A DNA stretch of 64,000 bases from Elusimicrobia bacterium GWA2_56_46 (lineage in GTDB: Bacteria; Elusimicrobiota; Elusimicrobia; Elusimicrobiales; UBA9959). The stretch spans positions 79,274-143,273 of the forward strand of contig MGTT01000028.1 of the NCBI GenBank assembly GCA_001799575.1, written 5' to 3'. Each line of letters begins with the position of its first letter. The first letter of the stretch is position 1. The notes below the pieces were generated by a model, which worked only from the letters and a program-made list of their open reading frames with translations, searched no databases and had not been told where the DNA came from. The position numbers and the translations under genes are program-made. Positions 2,694 to 57,844 of the stretch are shown here, piece by piece.

Positions 2694-2905
2694 GCGTTGG
2701 TGTGATCGGGTCAACGAAGCTCATATAGAGTAAAAAAGGTAGACGCTGCCTTTTCCTTAAAGCCGGCCACAAGTCGAGCGGTATTGAATTTTAACCCTTG
2801 ACGGCGCACTATATTTTGTATATACTATATGTAGCACAATAATGTAGTGCACGGATGTTTGCCGGCCATAGGCCGGATACGGCGCCGGTATGGACTGGGA
2901 GTCTC

Positions 2906-3175
2906 ATGAAAATCTCCGATTTTGAGTGGGATAGGGCCAACGAAGCTCATATTGCCAGGCACAATGTTACTCCGGCTGAGGCGGAAGAAGTTTTTCTTTC
3001 GGAATATTTTCTCCGTAAAACTCATTCAGGGCGTTACGGTCTCTATGGCCGGAGTTTTCATGGCCGCTGTTTATTTATCGTTTTCGAAAAACTTAAAGGT
3101 AATGTTGCCAGGATAATCACAGCCAGGGATATGGCGGACAAAGAGAAAATATTTTATCGGAGGGTGAAAAGATGA
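2906..3175 (+). CDS. brnT: BrnT-family toxin (DUF497 ribonuclease toxin).
   Basis: The start motif MKISDFEWDRANEAHIARHNVTPAEAEEVF is typical of BrnT/DUF497. The stop overlaps the downstream start as ATGA. Confidence 0.75.
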   Translation: MKISDFEWDRANEAHIARHNVTPAEAEEVFLSEYFLRKTHSGRYGLYGRSFHGRCLFIVFEKLKGNVARIITARDMADKEKIFYRRVKR

Positions 3176-3486
3176 AAAACCGCAAACTGCCGCATTTTAA
3201 AACAAGGGAAGAAGAGGCCGAATTCTGGGATACTCATTCCATGGCGGATTATCTGGGCGAGTTGGAATGTGCGGATGAGGTTTTTACCCTCGCGCCGTCT
3301 TTGGCGGAGAAAATCAAGGAGAGGGCAAAGACAAAGGCTGTTTCGCTAAGGCTTCCTCAATGGGAAATCGACGGGGCCAAAAGAGTCGCCAAAAAAGAGG
3401 GCGTAGGCTATCAGGTTTTAATCAATACCTGGATCGCCGAAGCTTTGAGACGTGAAGCGCACCGCACCCGCAGGGCCGGTACATAG
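3172..3486 (+). CDS. brnA: BrnA-family antitoxin (CopG/RHH-like).
   Basis: The gene is translationally coupled (ATGA) to the upstream brnT. Its size of 104 aa and its context fit BrnA, and the C-terminus is an RHH-like basic region. Confidence 0.65.
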   Translation: MKNRKLPHFKTREEEAEFWDTHSMADYLGELECADEVFTLAPSLAEKIKERAKTKAVSLRLPQWEIDGAKRVAKKEGVGYQVLINTWIAEALRREAHRTRRAGT

Positions 3487-3526
3487 CGATTAATGAATGG
3501 GAAAGGTAGTTGCTGCCTTTTTTATT

Positions 3527-3680
3527 TGAACAGGTTTAAGTCACAAGTCGAACATGGAATTGATACAGATACTTATGGAAGCGGCGCACGATAGAGCGGG
3601 GTCCTGCCGGGGGATAACCTTTTCGCGTTCCCTCGGCCGCCTGCGGGGTCGAAAAGGTTACGCCCCCGTCACCCCTTCCC
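3527..3680. repeat. Right copy of the ~105 bp direct repeat, followed by a complete palindromic hairpin element.
   Basis: Positions 3527-3632 match 1689-1794. The palindrome ggggataaccttttcg...cgaaaaggttacgcccc closes the element. Confidence 0.8.
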
Positions 3681-3888
3681 TGTTCCCTTATCCTGAGATC
3701 CTTAAAAAATATAATTGTTACCATCCAAATTATCTCTTAAATTATCCGCCCTTTAATAGTCGAGGAATGGGGGGGACGTAGCTCGGTTTCTTGATTATTT
3801 TTAATATGCTTGGATTCGCAATTATGCGCCCAGTAAAAATAGTTAGTCAACTAGTCAACAACGTCCCCGTACCCTCGGGAAGATATAA

Positions 3889-4085
3889 AATGGAGGGGGC
3901 GGCGGCGGGTTTTCTGCGCGCTCCATTTGAGGGTTTAAAACCGGAGTCTGGAGCAGTATCCCTCCGGGACGGCGAGGATGTTTGAGGGCAAAAGCTTTGT
4001 CTTTTGCCCGAGTTCCGGAGCCGGCGGAGGACTCCGGTTTTCTTCCCCGGAAACCCGAACCCGGAGCGCGCGGGAAACCCGGCGA
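3889..4085. ncRNA. Structured RNA, copy 1. It is a rod-like hairpin of ~180-195 nt with a long closing stem. The family is unassigned (6S-like is the working hypothesis) and the strand is undetermined.
   Basis: The closing helix pairs cgggttttctgcgcgctcc with ggagcgcgcgggaaacccg. An inner helix pairs ccggagtc with gactccgg, and there is a central hairpin gggcaaaag...cttttgccc. A second copy at 54805-55005 preserves these helices through compensatory changes. Confidence 0.55.
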
Positions 4086-4135
4086 CGACCCCGGACAGTG
4101 CAATCGTCTTTAACAGCGGGCATCGTATTGAGGAT

Positions 4136-5060: not shown

Positions 5061-5201
5061 CAGGGCGGGTAATTACGCCGTACCATGATTGGGTGGGATT
5101 AAGATGCTATATTTTAAGGGAGCGCCGGGGATTTGATCTTAACCGGCATCCATTGCGTAAGTTTAATGGAGGGCCGCCGGCGGGTATAGTTGGAGGGGTG
5201 G

Positions 5202-5259
5202 CGGGACCATGCCTTTTCGTCCCGCAGGTTGCCGAGGGAAGCGGAAAGGCATGGTCCCG
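5202..5259. repeat. Palindromic hairpin element of the same family as 3590-3680 and 54528-54610, in inverted orientation.
   Basis: cgggaccatgccttttcg ... cggaaaggcatggtcccg forms a ~17 bp stem. The loop is approximately the reverse complement of the loop in the other copies. Confidence 0.6.
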
Positions 5260-5370
5260 ACAGGACCCCGAACTCGCAGCCGCCTGTGTCCCGACTGGGC
5301 ATCTCGCGGCTTTAAACCCAAAGTCAACTATCCCGGCGTTACATTGCGGTGAAAAGGTGAACGGGAATTT

Positions 5371-12314: not shown

Positions 12315-13640
12315 ATGACTTTTAAACAGGCGTCCGAAATCTTGACGGCGCGGAATAACTTCGTGAAAAAGGACGTAGGGGAAACCGCTTATGCGGTTTC
12401 CACCTGTGGTTCAATCCCCGGGAAGGGGTACCGCCTGGAAAGGGTCTATGCGGCTCTTGGCAAGCTGGGGAATCCGCACGAAAAGATCCGGGCGGTGCAT
12501 GTGACGGGCACCAACGGCAAGGGCTCGGTCTGCGCGCTTTTCGATTCCGTGCTGCGGGCGGCCGGCTACAGAACCGGGCTCTTTATCAGCCCCCATCTGT
12601 CGAAGCTTACGGAACGCATAAAGATCGACGGCGGCGAGATAAGCGAAAATGAATTTGCCGCGTTATTGGAAGAGGTGTTAAAAGCCGGTCCGGATCTGAG
12701 TTTTTTTGAACTTTTGACCTGCATGGCTTTTCTTTATTTCGAGCGCGGCGGAACCGATATCGCGGTCATCGAAGTCGGCATAGGCGGGCGCTTTGACGCC
12801 ACCAATGTCCTGCCCCGGCCGGAGCTGGCCGTCATAACTTCGGTGGATTACGACCACGAAAAATACCTGGGCGGCGAGATCAAAGAGATCGCGGGGCAGA
12901 AAGCCGGCATTATAAAACGCGGCGGTATCTGTCTGGCGCCTCTTTTGCCCGAAGCCGCCCGCGGCCCGATCCTGCGGGAAGCGGCCGGGATGTCGGCGCA
13001 GGCGCATTTTTTCGCGCCTGTTTTTGAGATCACCGGCCATGACTGGACGCGCGGCCTGATGAAATTACGGCATAAGAAGACCGGTATGGAGTTGGAATTA
13101 GGGCTCCTGGGGGAAGCGCAGGTTTCCAACGCCACGCTGGTATACGAGGGGGCGGCCGTTCTGGCCGGCTCCGGCTTTAAAATAAGCGGGGAGCATCTCG
13201 CGGCGGGGTTCGCGCGCGTGAACTGGCCGGGCCGTTTCCAGATCCTTAACCGGGGCGGGGTCGTTTATATTCTGGACGGCGCGCATAATCCGGAGGCGGT
13301 AAGGGCTTTCGCCGCGACTTTTGAAAAATCCCCTTTCAAGGATAAGGACGCGGTGTTCGTGGCGGGTTTTCTCAACGACAAGGATCACGCGGCCATCCTG
13401 GGGACGCTGGCAGCCTGCGCCGCGAAAGCGGTGTTCACCAGGCCGCCTTCCCCGAGGGCGCTGGATCCATACGCGCTGGCTGATGAGTTTTGCGGCCTGC
13501 GGCCCGGCGCCGAGATAGAAGTTCAGGAAGATATAGAAGCGGCTCTCGCGGCCGGAGCGCGGACGGGAACGGCGGTGGTGCTTGGGTCTTTTTACCTGGT
13601 CGGCGCGGCGCTGGAGATTTTAAAAAAGGAGCGTTTATGA
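12315..13640 (+). CDS. folC: Folylpolyglutamate synthase / dihydrofolate synthase.
   Basis: The P-loop HVTGTNGKGS is present and the protein has Mur-ligase-family architecture. Confidence 0.85.
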   Translation: MTFKQASEILTARNNFVKKDVGETAYAVSTCGSIPGKGYRLERVYAALGKLGNPHEKIRAVHVTGTNGKGSVCALFDSVLRAAGYRTGLFISPHLSKLTERIKIDGGEISENEFAALLEEVLKAGPDLSFFELLTCMAFLYFERGGTDIAVIEVGIGGRFDATNVLPRPELAVITSVDYDHEKYLGGEIKEIAGQKAGIIKRGGICLAPLLPEAARGPILREAAGMSAQAHFFAPVFEITGHDWTRGLMKLRHKKTGMELELGLLGEAQVSNATLVYEGAAVLAGSGFKISGEHLAAGFARVNWPGRFQILNRGGVVYILDGAHNPEAVRAFAATFEKSPFKDKDAVFVAGFLNDKDHAAILGTLAACAAKAVFTRPPSPRALDPYALADEFCGLRPGAEIEVQEDIEAALAAGARTGTAVVLGSFYLVGAALEILKKERL

Positions 13641-18753: not shown

Positions 18754-18831
18754 TTCCCGATATAAGGTAACGCCGGGCTGGTTGGCTTTGGGTTATGCTT
18801 CGCTATCCTGCGGTTCTATACCCAAAGCTGT

Positions 18832-51319: not shown

Positions 51320-52690
51320 TTATTTCTTTTTCGGGAACAGCGCCGCCGCCTTTTGCGTTTCAAAGCCGGCGGCGGAAGTCCTGGCTACCGCCAGGCCCAG
51401 CTGCATTCTGGTGGCGGTATCGGGCATGAAGGGGTAGATCCAGCCGGCGATGGCCCGCAGGGACCAGACAAGGTCGTATAGAAAAAGTTTAAGAGTTTCC
51501 GGTTCCGTATCGGCCAGTTTCCAGGGTTGTTTTTCTTCTATGGCCTTGTTGAGCAGCGCCACGGCCCGCCGGACATCGTCCAGCGCTTCCGAAAATCTAA
51601 GAGCGTCTATCTTCCTGTCCAGCTCCGGGCCGCCGGCCGAGATCTTTCCGAAGAGCTCCGCGTCGCCGGGACGGTCGGGCAGGCGGTCGGCCAGGTATTT
51701 CCGGACCATGCCCAGAACCCTGGAGAAAAGATTGCCCAGGCCGCCGGCCAGATCCGAGTTGTAGCGCCGCTTCAAAGTTTCAGGGGAAAAATTCCCATCG
51801 GCGGCGAAAGGGACTTCGCAGAACAGATAGTAACGGAGCGCGTCCGCCCCGTATTCCCGGATGATCTCTTCCGGCTCGATAAAGCCGCTTTCCGTTCCGG
51901 CCGCGCGGGCTGCGAACATCTTGCGCCCGTGGAGGTGGATCGTCTTTGGCGGTTCCAGGCCCAGCGCCAGAAGGAGGGCTGGCCAGAGAACCGCGTGAAA
52001 ATGGAGGGACTCTTTCCCCGTCACGTGCGCGTCCGCGGGCCATTTCATCTGGAAATTATCGGAGGGAGCGTCCGGATCATAGCCCGCCCCTGTGGCGTAA
52101 CCGAGCAGCGTGTCGAACCACGCTGAGATGGTGAGCCTCGGGTTTGCGGGTATTGTTATTCCCCAGCCGGTTTTGGCGCTGGAAACCGGGATATCTTTGA
52201 GACCCGATCCGACGAAGTTCGCCGCTTCCCGGGCAAAGCGGCCGGGCGTGAGGAACATCGGGTTGTCCGCGTAATGCGCGAGCAGCGCTTTCCCGTACCC
52301 GGAGAGCCGGAAGAAGCAGGCGTCCTTTCCGTAATAGATGTCCCCGGTCTTAACCAGTTTTTCAAAAGCCGCGCGCACCGCTTTTTCGTGCGCCCGGCCG
52401 CTGGTTCCGGTGAACAGGTCGCGGCTGATTCCCAGCGATTTCCAGAGCTTGTCTAATTTTCCGGAGACCGAGCCGCACCAGGCTTCCGCGGTCAGGCCTT
52501 TTTCCGCGGCCGCCCTTTCGACCCCGGCGCCGTGTTCCGCGGCCACGGTCTGAAAAAAAACGGGGATCTGGCGCGCGCGCTTGTGCCGGGCCAGGATATC
52601 GGCGGCCAGGGCGGAGTAAATGTGGCCGAGATCGGGAGCGCCGGTCACGGAACAGGGCGCGCTGGTGATATAAAAATAGATCTTCGGCAT
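51320..52690 (-). CDS. Methionyl-tRNA synthetase-like protein with degenerate catalytic motifs: HIGH reads DLGH and KMSKS reads KMFAA.
   Basis: It aligns to short-type MetRS along its whole length, including AAD..ARxKR, WFDxL, HxxGKD..FHAVxWP and the C-terminal anticodon-binding domain. The two class-I signature motifs are not conserved. It lies 1 nt after the holB stop. Confidence 0.7.
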   Translation of the reverse strand: MPKIYFYITSAPCSVTGAPDLGHIYSALAADILARHKRARQIPVFFQTVAAEHGAGVERAAAEKGLTAEAWCGSVSGKLDKLWKSLGISRDLFTGTSGRAHEKAVRAAFEKLVKTGDIYYGKDACFFRLSGYGKALLAHYADNPMFLTPGRFAREAANFVGSGLKDIPVSSAKTGWGITIPANPRLTISAWFDTLLGYATGAGYDPDAPSDNFQMKWPADAHVTGKESLHFHAVLWPALLLALGLEPPKTIHLHGRKMFAARAAGTESGFIEPEEIIREYGADALRYYLFCEVPFAADGNFSPETLKRRYNSDLAGGLGNLFSRVLGMVRKYLADRLPDRPGDAELFGKISAGGPELDRKIDALRFSEALDDVRRAVALLNKAIEEKQPWKLADTEPETLKLFLYDLVWSLRAIAGWIYPFMPDTATRMQLGLAVARTSAAGFETQKAAALFPKKK

Positions 52691-52691
52691 T

Positions 52692-53744
52692 TCAGCGGTT
52701 CCGGAGACCGTCCAGGGATACCGACAGTTTGTCGCTTTCAAGCAGCGCCGCTTCCAGCACCAGTCCGTGAGAAACGTTCTGGTTCAGGAACCGGCGGTAT
52801 TCCATAAGTTTACCGATCAGGGCCGCATAGGCGCGCGCGCTCCCGCCGGGGGGCTGCGCCAGCCAGCGTTTTCTGGCGGAAACCAGCAGCATCTCCAGCA
52901 TGAGCTTCGCTTCCTCGCGCGCCAGATAGGGTTCGCGGGGAAGGCTTGAGACCAGTTTGAAAATTTTGGCCGGGCCGGAAGCCGCGATGCCTGCAAGCCG
53001 GTCGCGGACCTTTTTGATATCGACGGCTTTTTTTACCGAGCCACCCGACAGTTCGCTCAGGACGGAAGCTTCGTCCAGCGTCATGCCGTCCCTTTCCAGA
53101 AGCTCTTCCACCGCCGCGGCGGAAAGCCGCGTGAATTCCACGGCGTAGCTCCGGGAGATGATGGTCGGAAGGAGCAGGTTTTTCTTGGCGGCGATAAGGA
53201 GGAAAACGGTGCCGGGGGGCGGTTCCTCAAGAACCTTTAACATCGCGTTCTGGGCGTTCGCGTTAAGCGTGTGGGCGTCGTTTATAATAAAGATCTTCCA
53301 CTCGGAGAGAATGGCTTTTTGGTAGACATGGCGCGTGAATTCCCTTACGGTGTCGATGCGCAGGGTCTTCTGTTTCCGGGCGTCCTCTTCAAGAAGGAGC
53401 CCCTGGAATTCGGAGTCTATGATCCTCACGTCGGGGTGCACACCTTTGTCGATCTGCGAGCAGGAAACGCACCGGCCGCAGGCGTCTTCAGAGGGATGAG
53501 GGATGAGGGATGAGGGATGAAGGGGGGAGCCGGAGGAGGGGGCGAAAAGGTCGTCTTCGGGTTTTGGTTCCTGCCGGGGGGTGTGGGTGCAGTTAAGAGC
53601 TTTGGCGAATTCTTTCGCCGCCAGGAATTTACCGGTCCCTTCGGGGCCTGAGAACAGAAGCGCGGGCGGTACGCGCCCGCCGGAGACGAGGGCCTTAAGT
53701 TTTTTTATCGCGCTTTCGTGGCCGAGGATGTTGTTGAAAGACAT
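52692..53744 (-). CDS. holB: DNA polymerase III delta-prime subunit.
   Basis: There is an AAA+ N-terminus (LLFSGPEGTGK) and a Zn module. A Pro/Ser-rich insertion is encoded by a heptamer repeat. Confidence 0.85.
   Translation of the reverse strand: MSFNNILGHESAIKKLKALVSGGRVPPALLFSGPEGTGKFLAAKEFAKALNCTHTPRQEPKPEDDLFAPSSGSPLHPSSLIPHPSEDACGRCVSCSQIDKGVHPDVRIIDSEFQGLLLEEDARKQKTLRIDTVREFTRHVYQKAILSEWKIFIINDAHTLNANAQNAMLKVLEEPPPGTVFLLIAAKKNLLLPTIISRSYAVEFTRLSAAAVEELLERDGMTLDEASVLSELSGGSVKKAVDIKKVRDRLAGIAASGPAKIFKLVSSLPREPYLAREEAKLMLEMLLVSARKRWLAQPPGGSARAYAALIGKLMEYRRFLNQNVSHGLVLEAALLESDKLSVSLDGLRNR
53493..53520. repeat. Heptamer tandem repeat (GGGATGA)x4 inside the holB coding sequence.
   Basis: gggatgagggatgagggatgagggatga. 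On the coding (minus) strand it encodes ...HPSSLIPHPS... Confidence 0.8.
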
Positions 53745-53808
53745 GGTTGTTTGAAAGAGACAGGGACGTAAAGTAATTCAGTTCGCAGACTTTACGTCCT
53801 TGTCCAGA

Positions 53809-54432
53809 TCACTTTGCAGCTATCCCAAACCTTGCCGCCAGCCTGGCGGTTATGGCCGCGTGTATTTTCTCCACGGATCCGGCGGCGTCGATCCTGAAAG
53901 AGCCTGGACGCGCGGCCAGAGCCGAGTAGGCCTTGTTGACCCTGAGCCTGAAAGCGGTGTCCTGGCGTTCCATCCTGTCCGATCCAAGGTTCCTGCCGCG
54001 CTTGAAAAACTCGCTGTCAGGCATGGTGAAAACGATGGTCAGATCCGGCTTGAGGCCGGCGGTGGCTATGCGGTTCAGTGTCGCGACCATTTTGAGATCC
54101 AGTTTTCTGCCGTAGCCCTGGTAGGCCGTGGTGGCCATGGTGAAGCGGTCGGAGATGATTATTCTCCCGGCTTTCAGGGCGGGCCTGATTATGTCGGCGG
54201 TATGCTGCGCCCTGGCGGCCTCGTAAAGCAGGAGTTCGGTCAGGGGGCTGATCTTGTTTTCAGGGTCGAGGAGAATCTCGCGGATGGCCTCGGAAATGCG
54301 CGCCCCTCCGGGTTCGCGGGTTAAAACCGTTTTGAGGCCTTTTTTCTTCAGCCAGGCGGCCAGAAGTCCGGCCTGGGTGGATTTGCCGGAGCGATCCGGT
54401 CCCTCGAAGACTATAAAGAGGCCTCTTTTCAT
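53809..54432 (-). CDS. tmk: Thymidylate kinase.
   Basis: The P-loop FIVFEGPDRSGKST, the DRF motif and the position upstream of holB fit Tmk. Confidence 0.9.
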   Translation of the reverse strand: MKRGLFIVFEGPDRSGKSTQAGLLAAWLKKKGLKTVLTREPGGARISEAIREILLDPENKISPLTELLLYEAARAQHTADIIRPALKAGRIIISDRFTMATTAYQGYGRKLDLKMVATLNRIATAGLKPDLTIVFTMPDSEFFKRGRNLGSDRMERQDTAFRLRVNKAYSALAARPGSFRIDAAGSVEKIHAAITARLAARFGIAAK

Positions 54433-54527
54433 ACCTATATGATAGCAACAGAAAGCTAAAGAAAGCAACGGAACGCCAATCGAAGTAATGTAACGCCGAG
54501 CCAGTGGATTTTGGGTGAAGCTCCGCA

Positions 54528-54610
54528 GGATAGTAAAGCGGGGGCCTGCCGGGGTGAGGCCTTTTCGCGTTCCGTCGGCGGCCTGCCGGGTCGAAAAGGC
54601 CTCACCCCGG
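54528..54610. repeat. Palindromic hairpin element of the same family as 3590-3680.
   Basis: ggggtgaggccttttcgcgttccgtcggcggcctgccgggtcgaaaaggcctcacccc is a perfect 17 bp stem. It is preceded by a gatagtaaagcgggggcctgccgggg leader similar to the one at 3590. Confidence 0.75.
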
Positions 54611-54804
54611 CACCCCGCATAAGGCTTACGCGCTTGATGGTCGCTCGACTAAATTTCCCGGCGCTCGCCTCAACCCCAAGCCACTTATAAAACAAAGCCG
54701 CCGGTTTCCCGGCAATGGTGGTAAATGCACTGTATCTTAAAAAGGGCGGGATAATGATGTTGTGTTTTAGGTCGTAACGTGAGGAACTACAATACGCGTA
54801 AGTT

Positions 54805-55005
54805 TTAGGGAGGGGCGGCGCCGGGTTTTCTGTGCGCTCCATTCGGAGGGTTTTAAGACCGGGGTCTGGAGCGTATCCCTCCGGGACGGCGGTGAATGTT
54901 TGAGGCAAAAAACTTTGCTTTTTTGCCGAGTTCGCACGCCGACGGAAGACCCCGGTCTTCTTCTCCATAAAACCCGAACCCGGAGCGCGCGGGAAACCCG
55001 GCGCC
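54805..55005. ncRNA. Structured RNA, copy 2. It is paralogous to 3889-4085, and its helices are maintained by compensatory substitutions.
   Basis: The closing helix pairs ccgggttttctgtgcgctcc with ggagcgcgcgggaaacccgg. The inner helix pairs ccggggtc with gaccccgg, compared with ccggagtc/gactccgg in copy 1. The central hairpin is ggcaaaaaac...ttttttgcc. Confidence 0.55.
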
Positions 55006-55417
55006 GCCCCGACTCCGCTATCCTGCGGTTCGTAACTCAAAGTCAATCAGCCATGCGCAAGTTTACGAACATCCGGAGCGGCCGCAGTCGTGGCAGGTGG
55101 GGCCGGAACAGCCGGGATTCATAACTTGCATGGGAGGACTCCCAGGCGATGCCGACGCTGGCCGGTGATACGTGATGTTTTGCCGAGCCGCGAAATTAAA
55201 CTATAATCTGGAGATGTCAATGAGGACAGGTGTGGCGATGATTTTAACCGCTAATATACCTTTAGGCAATATTTATGCAACACGGAAATACTAAAGTCAG
55301 TCTGGAGGCGCGGCAATCTGGAAGCGGGGCAATTTATAGCCTTACATCCCGAACCTGAACCGCTTTACGCCTTTGCCTCTAAGCGGTTTTGCATCTATAT
55401 AACGGAGCGAATAAAAT

Positions 55418-57844
55418 ATGCCCGATCAATTCGACGAGTCCTCGCTTAACGAGGAAGCCATAACCGACGTGGAAACGGCCAGGCTGGCTTTACGCTGGGC
55501 ACTGGACAAGATCCGCGCTTTGCAGGAAGAGGCCATGCGTTCCAGGCAGAATCTGCAGGAGAAGTCTTCCCAGGCGGCGTTCATTGAGAACCAGCTGAAA
55601 GGGAAGAACTCGGAGATCGAAAGGATCCTGCGCACCCACGAAGAGGAGCTGAAGTCCACCCAGAATTCGCTGGAGTACCAGTTCCGCTCAAAACTGGAGC
55701 GGCTCGCCGAAAGAGAAAAGGAACTGGAAGACAAGTCCTCCAGGCAGGAGGAGATCCTTAAGCAGAAAGAGACCAGACTGCTTGACGATTATCAGAAAAA
55801 ATCTGACGAGCTGCGCGCCCGCTGGGCCCAGGTGGAAGCCGAGCTCTGGCGGCTGCGCCAGGAACATATGCTCAAGCAGCAGGAATTCGAGAAGCTTTAT
55901 GCCGCCAGGCTTGAGGACGAGCGCGCCAAGGCCGCCGCTGAAATGGAGAACGTCCGCGCCGGGTTCGAGAAGACTTACGCCGACAGGATCGCGGATCTGG
56001 AAAAAAGGGAACGCGCCGCCGCCGACGAACTGAAAAAGCAGGAAGCCATGCTCAAGTGGTCCAAAGACAGCTTCCAGGCCGAGGCGGCGGAGCGCGAAAA
56101 AGCTTTAAAGCAGAAAGACCTGGATATCGAAAAAAAATTGATGGAGAAAAACCAGGAGATAGAGGATTACAGGGTAAAAGAGGGCCTGCTTCAGAAGCAG
56201 TTGTCTGATCTGCCCGAGGCTGTCCGCAAGCGCGATGAAGATCTGAACAGGTACAAGCAGGCCATGGAGAGCCTCGAAAGCGTCATCCGCACCCTCGAAA
56301 ACGAGAAAAAAAACCTGCGGGCCGAGCTGGAACAGAAGGTGTCGCGCCTGAACGAGGCCCTGGAGGCGGAGAAGAAAAAGTACGGAGAAATGGAGGCTGA
56401 GATCCCCAAGCGGCTCAAGATCGCCGTAGAGCACGAGCGCGGCCGGCTGACCGAACGGCTTGCCGGCGTGGAGGCCGGTTACAAGGAGGATCTGCGCCGC
56501 CGCCAGGAAGAGGCGGCGTATCTTGAAAGAACCCTTAAGACCCTGGAGGAGAACAACAAGACCCTGCAGGCGGAGCGGGACTCTTTTTCGTACAAGATAG
56601 AGCAGTTACAGACCCAGTACGGCATAAAACAGGAGGAATTTTCTTTCAGGGAAAAGCAGCTTCAGTCCGAATATGACGTCAGGCTCAAGGTGGAACTGGA
56701 AAAACAGTCGGAGGCCATGAGGAACGAGCTTGAGTCGGCCCGGCGTATTTACGAGGACAATCTGCGCCTGAAAATAGAGGAGATAGCGCACCTGCGCCGG
56801 GAACTGGAGGGGGCCGTAAACGACAGGATGTCTTTCCAGACCCAGGCCGCCGAATTACGCCGCGCCGTGGACGCCGTCAAGGCCAAAGGCGAGAACGAAC
56901 TGTCCGCCCTCCGGGCGCAGCTTAAAGGCGCGTATGAACGGCAGCTTTCCGCGGAGCTTGCGGAAGCCGGGGATCGCCAGGCCGCGGAAAAGCAGAAGCT
57001 CGCCGCGGCTTTCGACGCGCGGCTCAAAGAAGAGGGGCTTGAAGTTTCCAGAAAAGAGGAGGAACTTCAGCGCCTCAGGAACGACATGAACAGGCTGGAA
57101 GCGGCCGGCAGGGAGGCCCTGGCCGCGGAGCGCCAGCGCGGGAAGACTGAGCTCCAGGTCCAGGCGGCGTCGTTCGCCGATACGGTGAAGATCTACGAGG
57201 ACAAGGTGAGCAACCTTAACAAGGCGATGGAGTCGCTGAAAGTGGAAAGAGAGGAGATGATCCTCCTGGAACGGGAGCGGCTTGAGAGGTTATATTCCGA
57301 AAAAGAGAAAGATTTCGACGAAAGGCTTTACCGGAAAGATCAGGAAGCGGTGCGTCTGCGGGAAGAGGCCTCCGGCCTGCGCAACGAGCGCGCCAATCTC
57401 GCCGCCGAACTGGCCAGGGAAAAAGAGCTGGGGAATGGGCGGATCCGCGTTCTCAACGAGAAACTGACGGGCAAGGAAGCGGAATTCCAGGGCCGCCTGG
57501 ACGAAGCCCTCGGGAAAGAGATGCGGCGGGCGGGGGAAACGCTTGACAAAAAGAATCAGGAACTGGACGCTCTGCTTCAGGCGAAAGAGACCCAGGAAAA
57601 TATGTACCGTAAGTCGCTGGAGGAGTTCCGGGCCAGGCTTTCCGAGGCCGTGACCAGGCTTGAGACGCTTAAAAAACTGGCTGATGAACGGGGCGCGCGC
57701 GTGGACGCCCTGGAGCGGGAACTGGATCAGATCCGGAAGTTCTCTTCCGAAGAGAACTCCTCCCTCGCCGCCAGGCTGGCCGCAAAGGAAAAGGACTGGC
57801 GCGAGCTGAGGGCCGAGTATGAGAAGCTGAAGAATGGGGGATGA
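55418..57844 (+). CDS. 808-aa protein that is coiled-coil for nearly its whole length (cytoskeletal or scaffold-like, with no recognisable enzymatic domain).
   Basis: It is extremely rich in E, K, R, L and A, with heptad-like periodicity throughout. There is no TM helix or signal peptide, and the ORF is long and uninterrupted. Confidence 0.7.
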   Translation: MPDQFDESSLNEEAITDVETARLALRWALDKIRALQEEAMRSRQNLQEKSSQAAFIENQLKGKNSEIERILRTHEEELKSTQNSLEYQFRSKLERLAEREKELEDKSSRQEEILKQKETRLLDDYQKKSDELRARWAQVEAELWRLRQEHMLKQQEFEKLYAARLEDERAKAAAEMENVRAGFEKTYADRIADLEKRERAAADELKKQEAMLKWSKDSFQAEAAEREKALKQKDLDIEKKLMEKNQEIEDYRVKEGLLQKQLSDLPEAVRKRDEDLNRYKQAMESLESVIRTLENEKKNLRAELEQKVSRLNEALEAEKKKYGEMEAEIPKRLKIAVEHERGRLTERLAGVEAGYKEDLRRRQEEAAYLERTLKTLEENNKTLQAERDSFSYKIEQLQTQYGIKQEEFSFREKQLQSEYDVRLKVELEKQSEAMRNELESARRIYEDNLRLKIEEIAHLRRELEGAVNDRMSFQTQAAELRRAVDAVKAKGENELSALRAQLKGAYERQLSAELAEAGDRQAAEKQKLAAAFDARLKEEGLEVSRKEEELQRLRNDMNRLEAAGREALAAERQRGKTELQVQAASFADTVKIYEDKVSNLNKAMESLKVEREEMILLERERLERLYSEKEKDFDERLYRKDQEAVRLREEASGLRNERANLAAELAREKELGNGRIRVLNEKLTGKEAEFQGRLDEALGKEMRRAGETLDKKNQELDALLQAKETQENMYRKSLEEFRARLSEAVTRLETLKKLADERGARVDALERELDQIRKFSSEENSSLAARLAAKEKDWRELRAEYEKLKNGG

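Follow-up and report, generated by a model that had tools for sequence, protein, structure and literature searches.

A covariation-supported candidate RNA family and its miniature relatives in the noncoding gap upstream of tmk in an Elusimicrobia bacterium

Introduction

What fills the long noncoding gap between tmk and the gene for a coiled-coil protein in the genome of Elusimicrobia bacterium GWA2_56_46? A preliminary description of this locus had placed a structured RNA in the gap, with a palindromic hairpin upstream of it, and proposed that the two parts travel or function together. Elusimicrobiota are nearly all uncultured, and in the literature on 6S RNA, noncoding RNA and RNA motifs of Elusimicrobia, we found no description of such RNAs in the phylum. 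Here, we analyze the gap within its surrounding DNA (64,000 nucleotides in all, hereafter the window) and compare it with related loci, which are referred to by number (L010 and the like).

Materials and methods

A 20-mer scan of species-representative genomes gave nine loci, three of them in Elusimicrobiota MAGs; the other six, from unrelated taxa, had no match to our covariance model R1 or a weak one (E 0.8). Metagenomes were scanned with a degenerate 27-mer, which gave 19 loci. Profile searches then led to 16 distinct full-length copies of the long RNA and several truncated ones. As the collection scans relied on exact patterns, the sample is biased to close relatives, and copy numbers are minimum estimates. 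R1 was quickly calibrated, and its E-values are rough.

Results

The gap extends from 54433 to 55417 (985 bp). The preliminary description had recognized it as a long intergenic region but had let it begin at 54456, giving about 960 bp. To its left, metG, holB, and tmk occupy 51320-54432 on the minus strand, with the tmk start at 54432. To its right, the coiled-coil gene (55418-57844, plus strand) encodes a protein of 808 amino acids without any Pfam match. Another assembly of the same organism (L002) has genes for 368 and 221 amino acids in place of this single gene, which is probably a frameshift or an assembly difference.

Reading from tmk, the gap holds a promoter-like site of tmk, then the trailer, hairpin, and leader of a first cassette (all on the minus strand), a spacer with two promoter regions, the leader, body, and trailer of the long RNA (plus strand), about 100 nt of unassigned sequence, and finally the promoter-like site and 5′ region of the coiled-coil gene. 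This last part (55178-55417, plus strand) comprises a sigma70-like site at 55180-55207, a conserved block at about 55240-55275, and a hairpin at 55358-55388; the promoter-like site and the 5′ region are kept in relatives. The hairpin had been listed before among the sequences downstream of the RNA. It is present, but we assign it to the 5′ region of the coiled-coil gene, outside the RNA cassettes. We treat the two short direct repeats at 55311-55336 as probable chance, since they agree in no more than some 10 of 12 bases, need an indel to be aligned, and have a different sequence at the corresponding place in a sister species.

At the other edge of the gap, a conserved TATCAT box lies 6 nt ahead of the tmk ATG (window 54433-54488; L019 2655-2705; L010 about 560-620), and in the window and L019 a TTGCTT/TTGCCT box is found 18 nt upstream. 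From its sequence, tmk appears to be leaderless or nearly so.

Copy B of the long RNA spans 54812-55010 on the plus strand (covariance-model score 229 bits, E 1e-63), which bears out the second copy of a structured RNA previously placed at 54805-55005. Its twin, copy A, lies at 3896-4092 on the same strand (195 bits). Both RNA copies, which are about 85% identical, lie some 190-225 nt downstream of a palindrome of about 80 nt. The palindrome given as 54528-54610 was located at 54534-54612, with a twin at 3592-3666, and the mirrored arrangement of palindrome, spacer, and RNA near 3590-4085 was found as described. In a pairwise alignment of the two sites, the palindrome and RNA blocks are conserved, whereas the spacer of about 200 nt between them cannot be aligned. 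A 34-mer of the RNA 3′ arm and a 40-mer of the palindrome each occur exactly twice in the 64 kb of the window, with none expected from shuffles.

The fold of copy B begins with a closing helix, P1, in which a 29-nt 5′ strand (54812-40) pairs with the 3′ strand 54982-55010. An internal loop follows, then P2a and P2b with a 9-nt bulge on the 3′ side, and a three-way junction from which a hairpin (P3) and an arm (P4-P5) emerge. The folding energy is -135.9 kcal/mol on the plus strand (z = -10.9) versus -115.9 kcal/mol on the minus strand; for copy A, it is -116.1 (z = -5.9). When the 16 distinct full-length copies from Elusimicrobiota MAGs and metagenomes were folded singly, each gave the identical architecture: a P1 of 26-29 bp with a small internal loop behind it, P2a formed by GGGUUUU with AAAACCC, a bulge of 9-10 nt, rich in pyrimidines, on the 3′ side between P2a and P2b (in L010, L036, and L038, additional hairpins take its place or stand opposite it), and a junction with an invariant UGGAGCGNA strand, a P3 hairpin of 4-5 bp with a variable loop, and the P4-P5 arm.

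In the alignment of these 16 sequences, 93.3% of the cells of the 67 pairs are paired, and 35 of the 67 pairs have changes on both sides. None of 500 shuffles attained any of five measures, and sliding the partner by 1-3 columns lowered pairing to 38-53%. The outer P1 sequences of L035a and L032a are quite divergent and still perfectly paired. At wobble pairs in P1, U is nearly always on the 5′ strand, and G-U cells outnumber A-C cells (49 versus 21). R1 scores the sense copies at 141-239 bits and the antisense copies at 28-73 bits. The placement and excess of G-U pairs and the model scores point to the plus strand of the window as the functional strand.

Copies A and B differ by indels of 1-2 nt within the RNA. 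No ORF is conserved across the long-RNA copies, and the ATG of copies A and B is missing from the other clade. As the indels would break any frame and no ORF is conserved, the long RNA is not coding. With Rfam 15 at the gathering threshold, the window contains two tRNAs only and no family matches the long RNA; at E ≤ 10, there were merely spurious pairings of long GC-rich hairpins with eukaryotic microRNA-precursor models. No intrinsic terminator was found downstream of the long RNA. The covariation and the strand asymmetry, together with a promoter-like block conserved upstream, back the earlier view of the element as a structured RNA, and there is strong evidence that these ~200 nt form a real structured RNA with a selected fold on a defined strand.

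The promoter-like block and leader of copy B (54712-54811, plus strand) consist of a degenerate box 1 (GGTGGTAAAT), GTATCT, a G-box (GGGCGGGA, 54744-54751), an AT-rich box, TACAAT (54788-54793), and the leader acgcgtaagttttaggga. Cassette-wide, the block reads AGGGCGGGYAAT (box 1, GGGCGGG), GTAYCRT, 5-6 bases, GGGYGGGG, and an AT-rich box, and the left edge of the homology between loci coincides with box 1. In a search for the double G-box, those of the matches listed that fall in Elusimicrobiota loci sit at cassettes. Two matches occur in the window (Markov mean 0.4), of which one belongs to the third mini cassette described below and the other lies away from known cassettes; a single G-box match at 13253 is intragenic and was put down to chance. 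The block is unlike a canonical sigma70 promoter, which a tRNA gene in the window does have. This implies either that a dedicated factor reads the block or that the promoter is of an unusual type.

The trailer of copy B (55011-55070, plus strand) reads GACUCCG CUAUCCUGCGG UUCGUAACUCAAAG ... GUUUACGAAC. While the leader is conserved across cassettes, the trailer is conserved in one clade. The leader segment AGCGCCGGGG is complementary to the trailer segment CCCGGCGUU, and in one clade, the predicted first transcribed bases, (A)AGGNAGCGCCGGGG, pair with the trailer CCCGGCGUU(AC). This helix is part of the minimum-energy folds of the third mini cassette and of one cassette in L036, and copies vary between G-U and A-U pairs in it. 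The pairing of leader with trailer would hold the ends of the primary transcript together. Within the trailer, 9 nt (CCUGCGGUU) are identical to the 3′ end of E. coli 16S rRNA; we regard this as coincidence.

The same leader and trailer explain the palindrome. Its 3′ flank (cataaggcttacgcgcttgat) is the reverse complement of the long-RNA leader (cgcgtaagtttaatGGAGGGG), and its 5′ flank is the reverse complement of the trailer common behind long RNAs, GACUNNN-CUAUCCUGCGG-N6-ACCCAAAGC-N4-CAGCCCGGCGUUAC. With an inverted leader and trailer as its flanks, the palindrome reads as the body of a second cassette on the minus strand, directed toward tmk. The leader of this mini cassette (reverse complement ...GAGCGCCGGGAAAUUUAGUCGAGCGACCAUCAAGCGCGUAAGCCUUAU) occupies 54613-54666 on the minus strand. 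The body, a near-perfect hairpin of about 80 nt (54534-54612), is matched by R1 on the minus strand with an E-value of 2.6e-5. The trailer (54489-54533, also minus strand), an inverted copy of the trailer of the long RNA, contains the CUAUCCUGCGG core, ACCCAAAA, and GGCUCGGCGUUACAU and ends about 55 nt upstream of the tmk ATG. Leader GAGCGCCGGG pairs with trailer CUCGGCGUU in a helix that we call P0.

Two further mini cassettes lie in the window. One (3584-3675, minus strand; palindrome 3592-3666) is divergent from copy A of the long RNA. The third (5063-5345, plus strand) is solitary, located between the rhomboid gene and coaE without an adjoining long RNA. It has the full upstream block, with a double G-box at 5063-5098, a leader, a hairpin at 5198-5274, and, immediately ahead of coaE, a trailer with CCCGGCGUUACAU at its end. 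The preliminary description had overlooked this third palindrome copy as well as a half copy at 1748-1794.

R1 gives weak but correctly oriented matches to mini cassettes at 54537-54623 (minus), 5164-5298 (plus), and L024 487-571 (minus), and the apical part of the minis repeats the GCCGNCGGAA motif of the long RNA. These matches and the shared motif lead us to regard the minis as relatives of the long RNA that have been shortened. Five minis have a common 20-bp stem in which six consecutive pairs vary, compensated in each copy and flanked by invariant pairs. L014 and L036 contain further hairpin bodies with the same leader, base (GGGGUGGC ... GACAGGNCCCC-GAC), and trailer. Judged by the leader and trailer that it shares and by the promoter block common to the family, the palindrome is a predicted miniature member of the cassette family of the long RNA on the opposite strand, not an accessory of that RNA.

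Several observations in the surroundings of the minis are reported here in their own right. In L036, two more minis (1700-1975, minus; 3583-3800, plus), which have double G-box blocks and hairpin bodies of new types, lie no more than 2 kb from a long copy, so that three cassettes are contained in 2.3 kb, adjoining an ORF6N-domain gene. Between polA and mini cassette A of the window, a 108-nt direct repeat (1687-1794 and 3522-3629, 89% identical), which takes in the trailer and half of the mini hairpin, surrounds a 1.7-kb insert. This insert contains a toxin-antitoxin pair of the BrnT/CopG type (2855-3486) and an ORF of 249 amino acids for which Pfam gave no match. The insert looks as if it had integrated into a mini small-RNA gene, by analogy with islands in tRNA genes. 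At 18767-18828, a short intergenic region holds a solitary trailer-like hairpin without an RNA body: GTAACGCCGGGCTG gttg GCTTTGGGT ... CTATCCTGCGG ttctat ACCCAAAGC.

Among the collections scanned, sequences recognizable as the cassette family were found only in Elusimicrobiota-type genomes and metagenome contigs; IMG/VR and the plasmid and phage collections gave nothing similar to the long RNA. A mini and a long copy stand back to back at copies A and B and in L024. Other back-to-back types are a different hairpin with a long copy in L014, a remnant in L016, and two long copies in L035 and L032. Long copies without a palindromic partner occur in L010, L036, and L038, and truncated ones in L019, L023b, and L030. 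Back-to-back pairing is recurrent but not obligatory. Of the proposal that palindrome and RNA travel or function together, the recurrence stands (A, B, L024, and, with the other hairpin type, L014), but the parts are separable: independent distribution in the full genome had been named as evidence against the proposal, and each part is also found alone, which weakens it in part.

The genes next to the copies vary by locus. They include tmk, the coiled-coil gene, the rhomboid gene, and polA as well as hydrogenase, ABC transporter, xanthine dehydrogenase-like, transposase, tRNA methyltransferase, ORF6N, priA, and pheT genes. Such unlike neighbors at each locus argue against a dedicated cis-regulator. 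A separate observation is that DNA-metabolism genes (polA, tmk-holB, a ribonucleotide reductase gene, priA) adjoin long copies in the window, L010, and L030, i.e., at 3-4 independent loci of about 12, which may be chance. Rfam also reports a 2′-dG-II purine riboswitch (L030 411-484) and an AdoCbl riboswitch (L027 4572-4712) on related contigs; both are unrelated to the long RNA.

Cis action on the downstream gene (tmk, coaE, the coiled-coil gene, or the rhomboid gene), with the element serving as a 5′ leader, as an attenuator, or as a signal for processing, is a very improbable explanation. It would account for the position of the minis 25-55 nt upstream of tmk and coaE in the same orientation, for the long copy directly ahead of tmk in L010 and L019, and for the co-orientation of long copies with the next gene in L022, L023, L038, and L039. 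Yet the downstream genes are unrelated, and copies are convergent with the neighboring gene in L014, L016, and L032a. Moreover, tmk has its own sigma70-like promoter beside the ATG, downstream of the mini trailer, and L042 and L041 are without the element at the tmk site. Copy B is about 400 nt away from the coiled-coil gene and lies upstream of that gene's own promoter-like site.

The content of the tmk site, a hot spot, differs in each genome examined. In the window, a mini points toward tmk and a long copy away from it. L010 has a full long copy and L019 a 5′-truncated long copy directed at tmk, so that the orientation at this locus flips between species. L042 has no cassette. The more distant relative L041 carries a different hairpin of about 150 nt between a ribonucleotide reductase gene and tmk (2943-3213; GGGGCCUGCCCCGGGG ... 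CCCCGGGACAGGCCCCGAC), the base of which resembles that of the minis. L043 and L044, whose coiled-coil protein is 94-95% identical to that of the window, keep the mini upstream of tmk, and the long RNA is absent. Here, 46 nt replace a strain-specific segment of 511 nt (54667-55177, plus strand) that holds the entire long-RNA cassette; the breakpoints lie outside the cassette and exceed it on both sides. No target-site duplication was seen at the indel between the window and L044. The truncated copies, the flip of orientation at the tmk locus, and the presence or absence of copy B among strains are more in keeping with an element that is dispensable or mobile than with a core regulatory RNA.

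The main rival to an RNA gene is a hairpin-forming, non-autonomous mobile or selfish repeat of the MITE, REPIN, or Correia kind. Its ends would be terminal inverted repeats, its hairpin would act at the level of DNA or single-stranded DNA or be incidental once transcribed, and the minis would be deletion derivatives that keep the ends. We hold this to be unlikely, although a good deal agrees with it. The ends are inverted: the left one reads GTAAT(T)ACGCCG..., the right one ...CGGCGTTACAT, and the leader is complementary to the trailer. Internally shortened derivatives retain both ends. There are truncated copies, and the surroundings are varied and often rich in mobile DNA (a transposase in L028, ORF6N in L036, the toxin-antitoxin insert beside copy A). 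The changing orientation at tmk, the missing element in L042 and L043/L044, and the solitary trailer hairpin at 18767-18828 also agree. Polymorphism of presence and absence in close relatives, a trait of MITEs and REPINs, is found in L043 and L044, which lack copy B.

The leader-trailer pairing with the GTAAT(T)ACGCCG / CGGCGTTAC ends is also readable as an RNA helix with G-U pairs. Copy number is low, with two long copies in 64 kb and one or two exact 20-mer matches in the two genomes of Elusimicrobiota that were hit among the species representatives. In these sequences, the many near-identical copies per genome expected of a mobile repeat were not seen; the identity of about 85% between A and B, together with their unalignable spacers, speaks against recent transposition. 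The strain indel has no target-site duplication and is bigger than the cassette on both sides. Orthologous positions are retained, both at the tmk site and in L022/L023, where long copies stand ahead of the same dehydrogenase gene. A multi-helix junction whose loop nucleotides are invariant, combined with a promoter-like block that is conserved, is unlike the ends that a transposase recognizes, and no transposase is consistently near the copies. The two readings are compatible: possibly, the cassette is a domesticated or RNA-level selfish element.

Discussion

On balance, we lean toward RNA genes: the gap would consist of two back-to-back small-RNA genes of one Elusimicrobiota-type cassette family, giving rise to a processed, trans-acting, protein-binding RNA. 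A selected fold on a defined strand and a conserved upstream block are the reasons to call them candidate RNA genes. The right-hand gene (plus strand) would specify a rod-like RNA of about 200 nt, closed by a helix of 29 bp and continued by a small internal loop, another helix from which a pyrimidine-rich stretch bulges, and a three-way junction. The left-hand gene (minus strand, toward tmk) would specify a hairpin of about 80 nt, apparently a relative of the long RNA that has been shortened internally. The AT-rich spacer between palindrome and long RNA is best read as a divergent promoter region, and both genes would be transcribed from their promoter-like blocks.

The paired termini and long helices, together with invariant nucleotides that cluster at the junction and at the internal loop, suggest that the RNA is processed, stable, and trans-acting and binds protein. 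The long perfect helices may be trimmed by a double-strand RNase, e.g., RNase III, and the mature RNA may act in trans, binding a protein via the invariant nucleotides in the manner of 6S and Y RNAs. Neither tmk nor the coiled-coil gene would be regulated in cis by the RNA. Several points count against this gene model: the upstream block departs from a canonical sigma70 promoter, the long RNA has no intrinsic terminator behind it, long perfect helices are unusual among stable bacterial RNAs, and among the loci compared, no partner protein was identified and no neighboring gene is conserved.

Its size of about 200 nt, rod shape, paired termini, long closing helix, and conserved nucleotides at interior loops raise the question of whether the long RNA is the divergent 6S RNA of this lineage (possibly with paralogues), an open-promoter mimic that sequesters RNA polymerase. 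Like 6S RNA (RF00013 and the related 6S-Flavo), it is apparently encoded by a gene of its own, sometimes with paralogues. No canonical 6S RNA was found in the window (64 kb) or in related loci totaling 127 kb, a weak argument as most of each genome is outside this sample. 6S RNA has a large central bubble of about 10-20 nt on each strand, while the largest two-sided loop of the long RNA is about 7 x 6 nt and the opening at mid-molecule is a three-way junction with P3. Neither copy is matched by an Rfam 6S model at the gathering threshold or at E ≤ 10, copy B is missing from close strains, and leader and trailer are shared with plain hairpin genes. Given the lack of a model match and of a central bubble, the strain variability, and the common leader and trailer, a 6S identity is quite unlikely.

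The candidate RNA genes resemble other known systems in part. Families of the Y RNA type have a constant terminal helix and flanks with different internal bodies, as do the cassettes, and such a constant base with varied bodies suggests a common partner that recognizes the base of the molecule. In contrast to Y RNAs, no Ro/TROVE gene was seen nearby, and there is no tRNA-like module and no sequence relation. With Correia/NEMIS, ERIC, and REPIN elements, the cassettes share inverted ends, internal deletion derivatives, and presence or absence among strains; Correia elements are transcribed as hairpins that can be cut by RNase III. The cassettes differ from these elements in being few, old, and diverged, without target-site duplication, and in having a complex junction fold and their own conserved upstream block. 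As in the processing stems of rRNA precursors, leader and trailer pair (P0) and enclose the mature RNA, but P0 encloses non-ribosomal RNAs of 80-250 nt and is here a predicted pairing. The terminal inverted repeats closing a highly structured RNA of about 200 nt also recall retron msr-msd. No reverse transcriptase gene adjoins any copy examined, however (flanking genes: tmk, coiled-coil, rhomboid, polA, hydrogenase, xanthine dehydrogenase-like, and others), and a retron ncRNA was rejected.

Further identities were considered and rejected. A cis leader or riboswitch is contradicted by the inconstant position relative to homologous genes and by several convergent neighbors. A type I toxin mRNA (hok-like) would share the 5′-3′ pairing, but a conserved ORF is absent. 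For an Omega/HEARO-type guide RNA, there is neither an Rfam HEARO match nor an IscB/TnpB neighbor. The window shows no switch in GC skew as at a replication origin, and the phage, plasmid, and virus collections gave no match that would indicate an origin from one of these. By eye, the spacing does not fit a sigma54 promoter, nor does the order of junction strands fit a hammerhead-like junction. For integron attC sites, the unit is much too long and arrays are missing. In a CsrA-type sponge, the GGA motifs would be expected in loops and preceded by A, whereas here they stand at helix ends without the usual preceding A.

The structured bodies are of two kinds, a junction rod of 200-250 nt and long perfect hairpins in which a short hypervariable box is compensated throughout, and the cassette units differ between strains and cluster near mobile DNA. 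This would also suit a modular RNA system in which a common chassis (double G-box block, leader, and end-pairing trailer) carries interchangeable structured bodies. Such a system might have an accessory role, e.g., hairpins diced into small specific RNAs, or decoys against mobile elements, rather than being a housekeeping regulator or a plain repeat. We put it forward tentatively and think it rather doubtful.

To return to the reading as RNA genes, the long RNA, at about 200 nt, is a covariation-supported candidate family without a match in Rfam 15. Its gene architecture is unusual: one promoter block and one leader and trailer serve two kinds of structured body. If the RNA is a protein-binding regulator, it may replace a 6S-like function in the lineage. 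Should it instead be a mobile hairpin element, a bacterial repeat would be clearly under selection for a complex RNA fold. In practical terms, an apparently empty gap of 1 kb is explained, and R1 can be used for annotating other Elusimicrobiota genomes.
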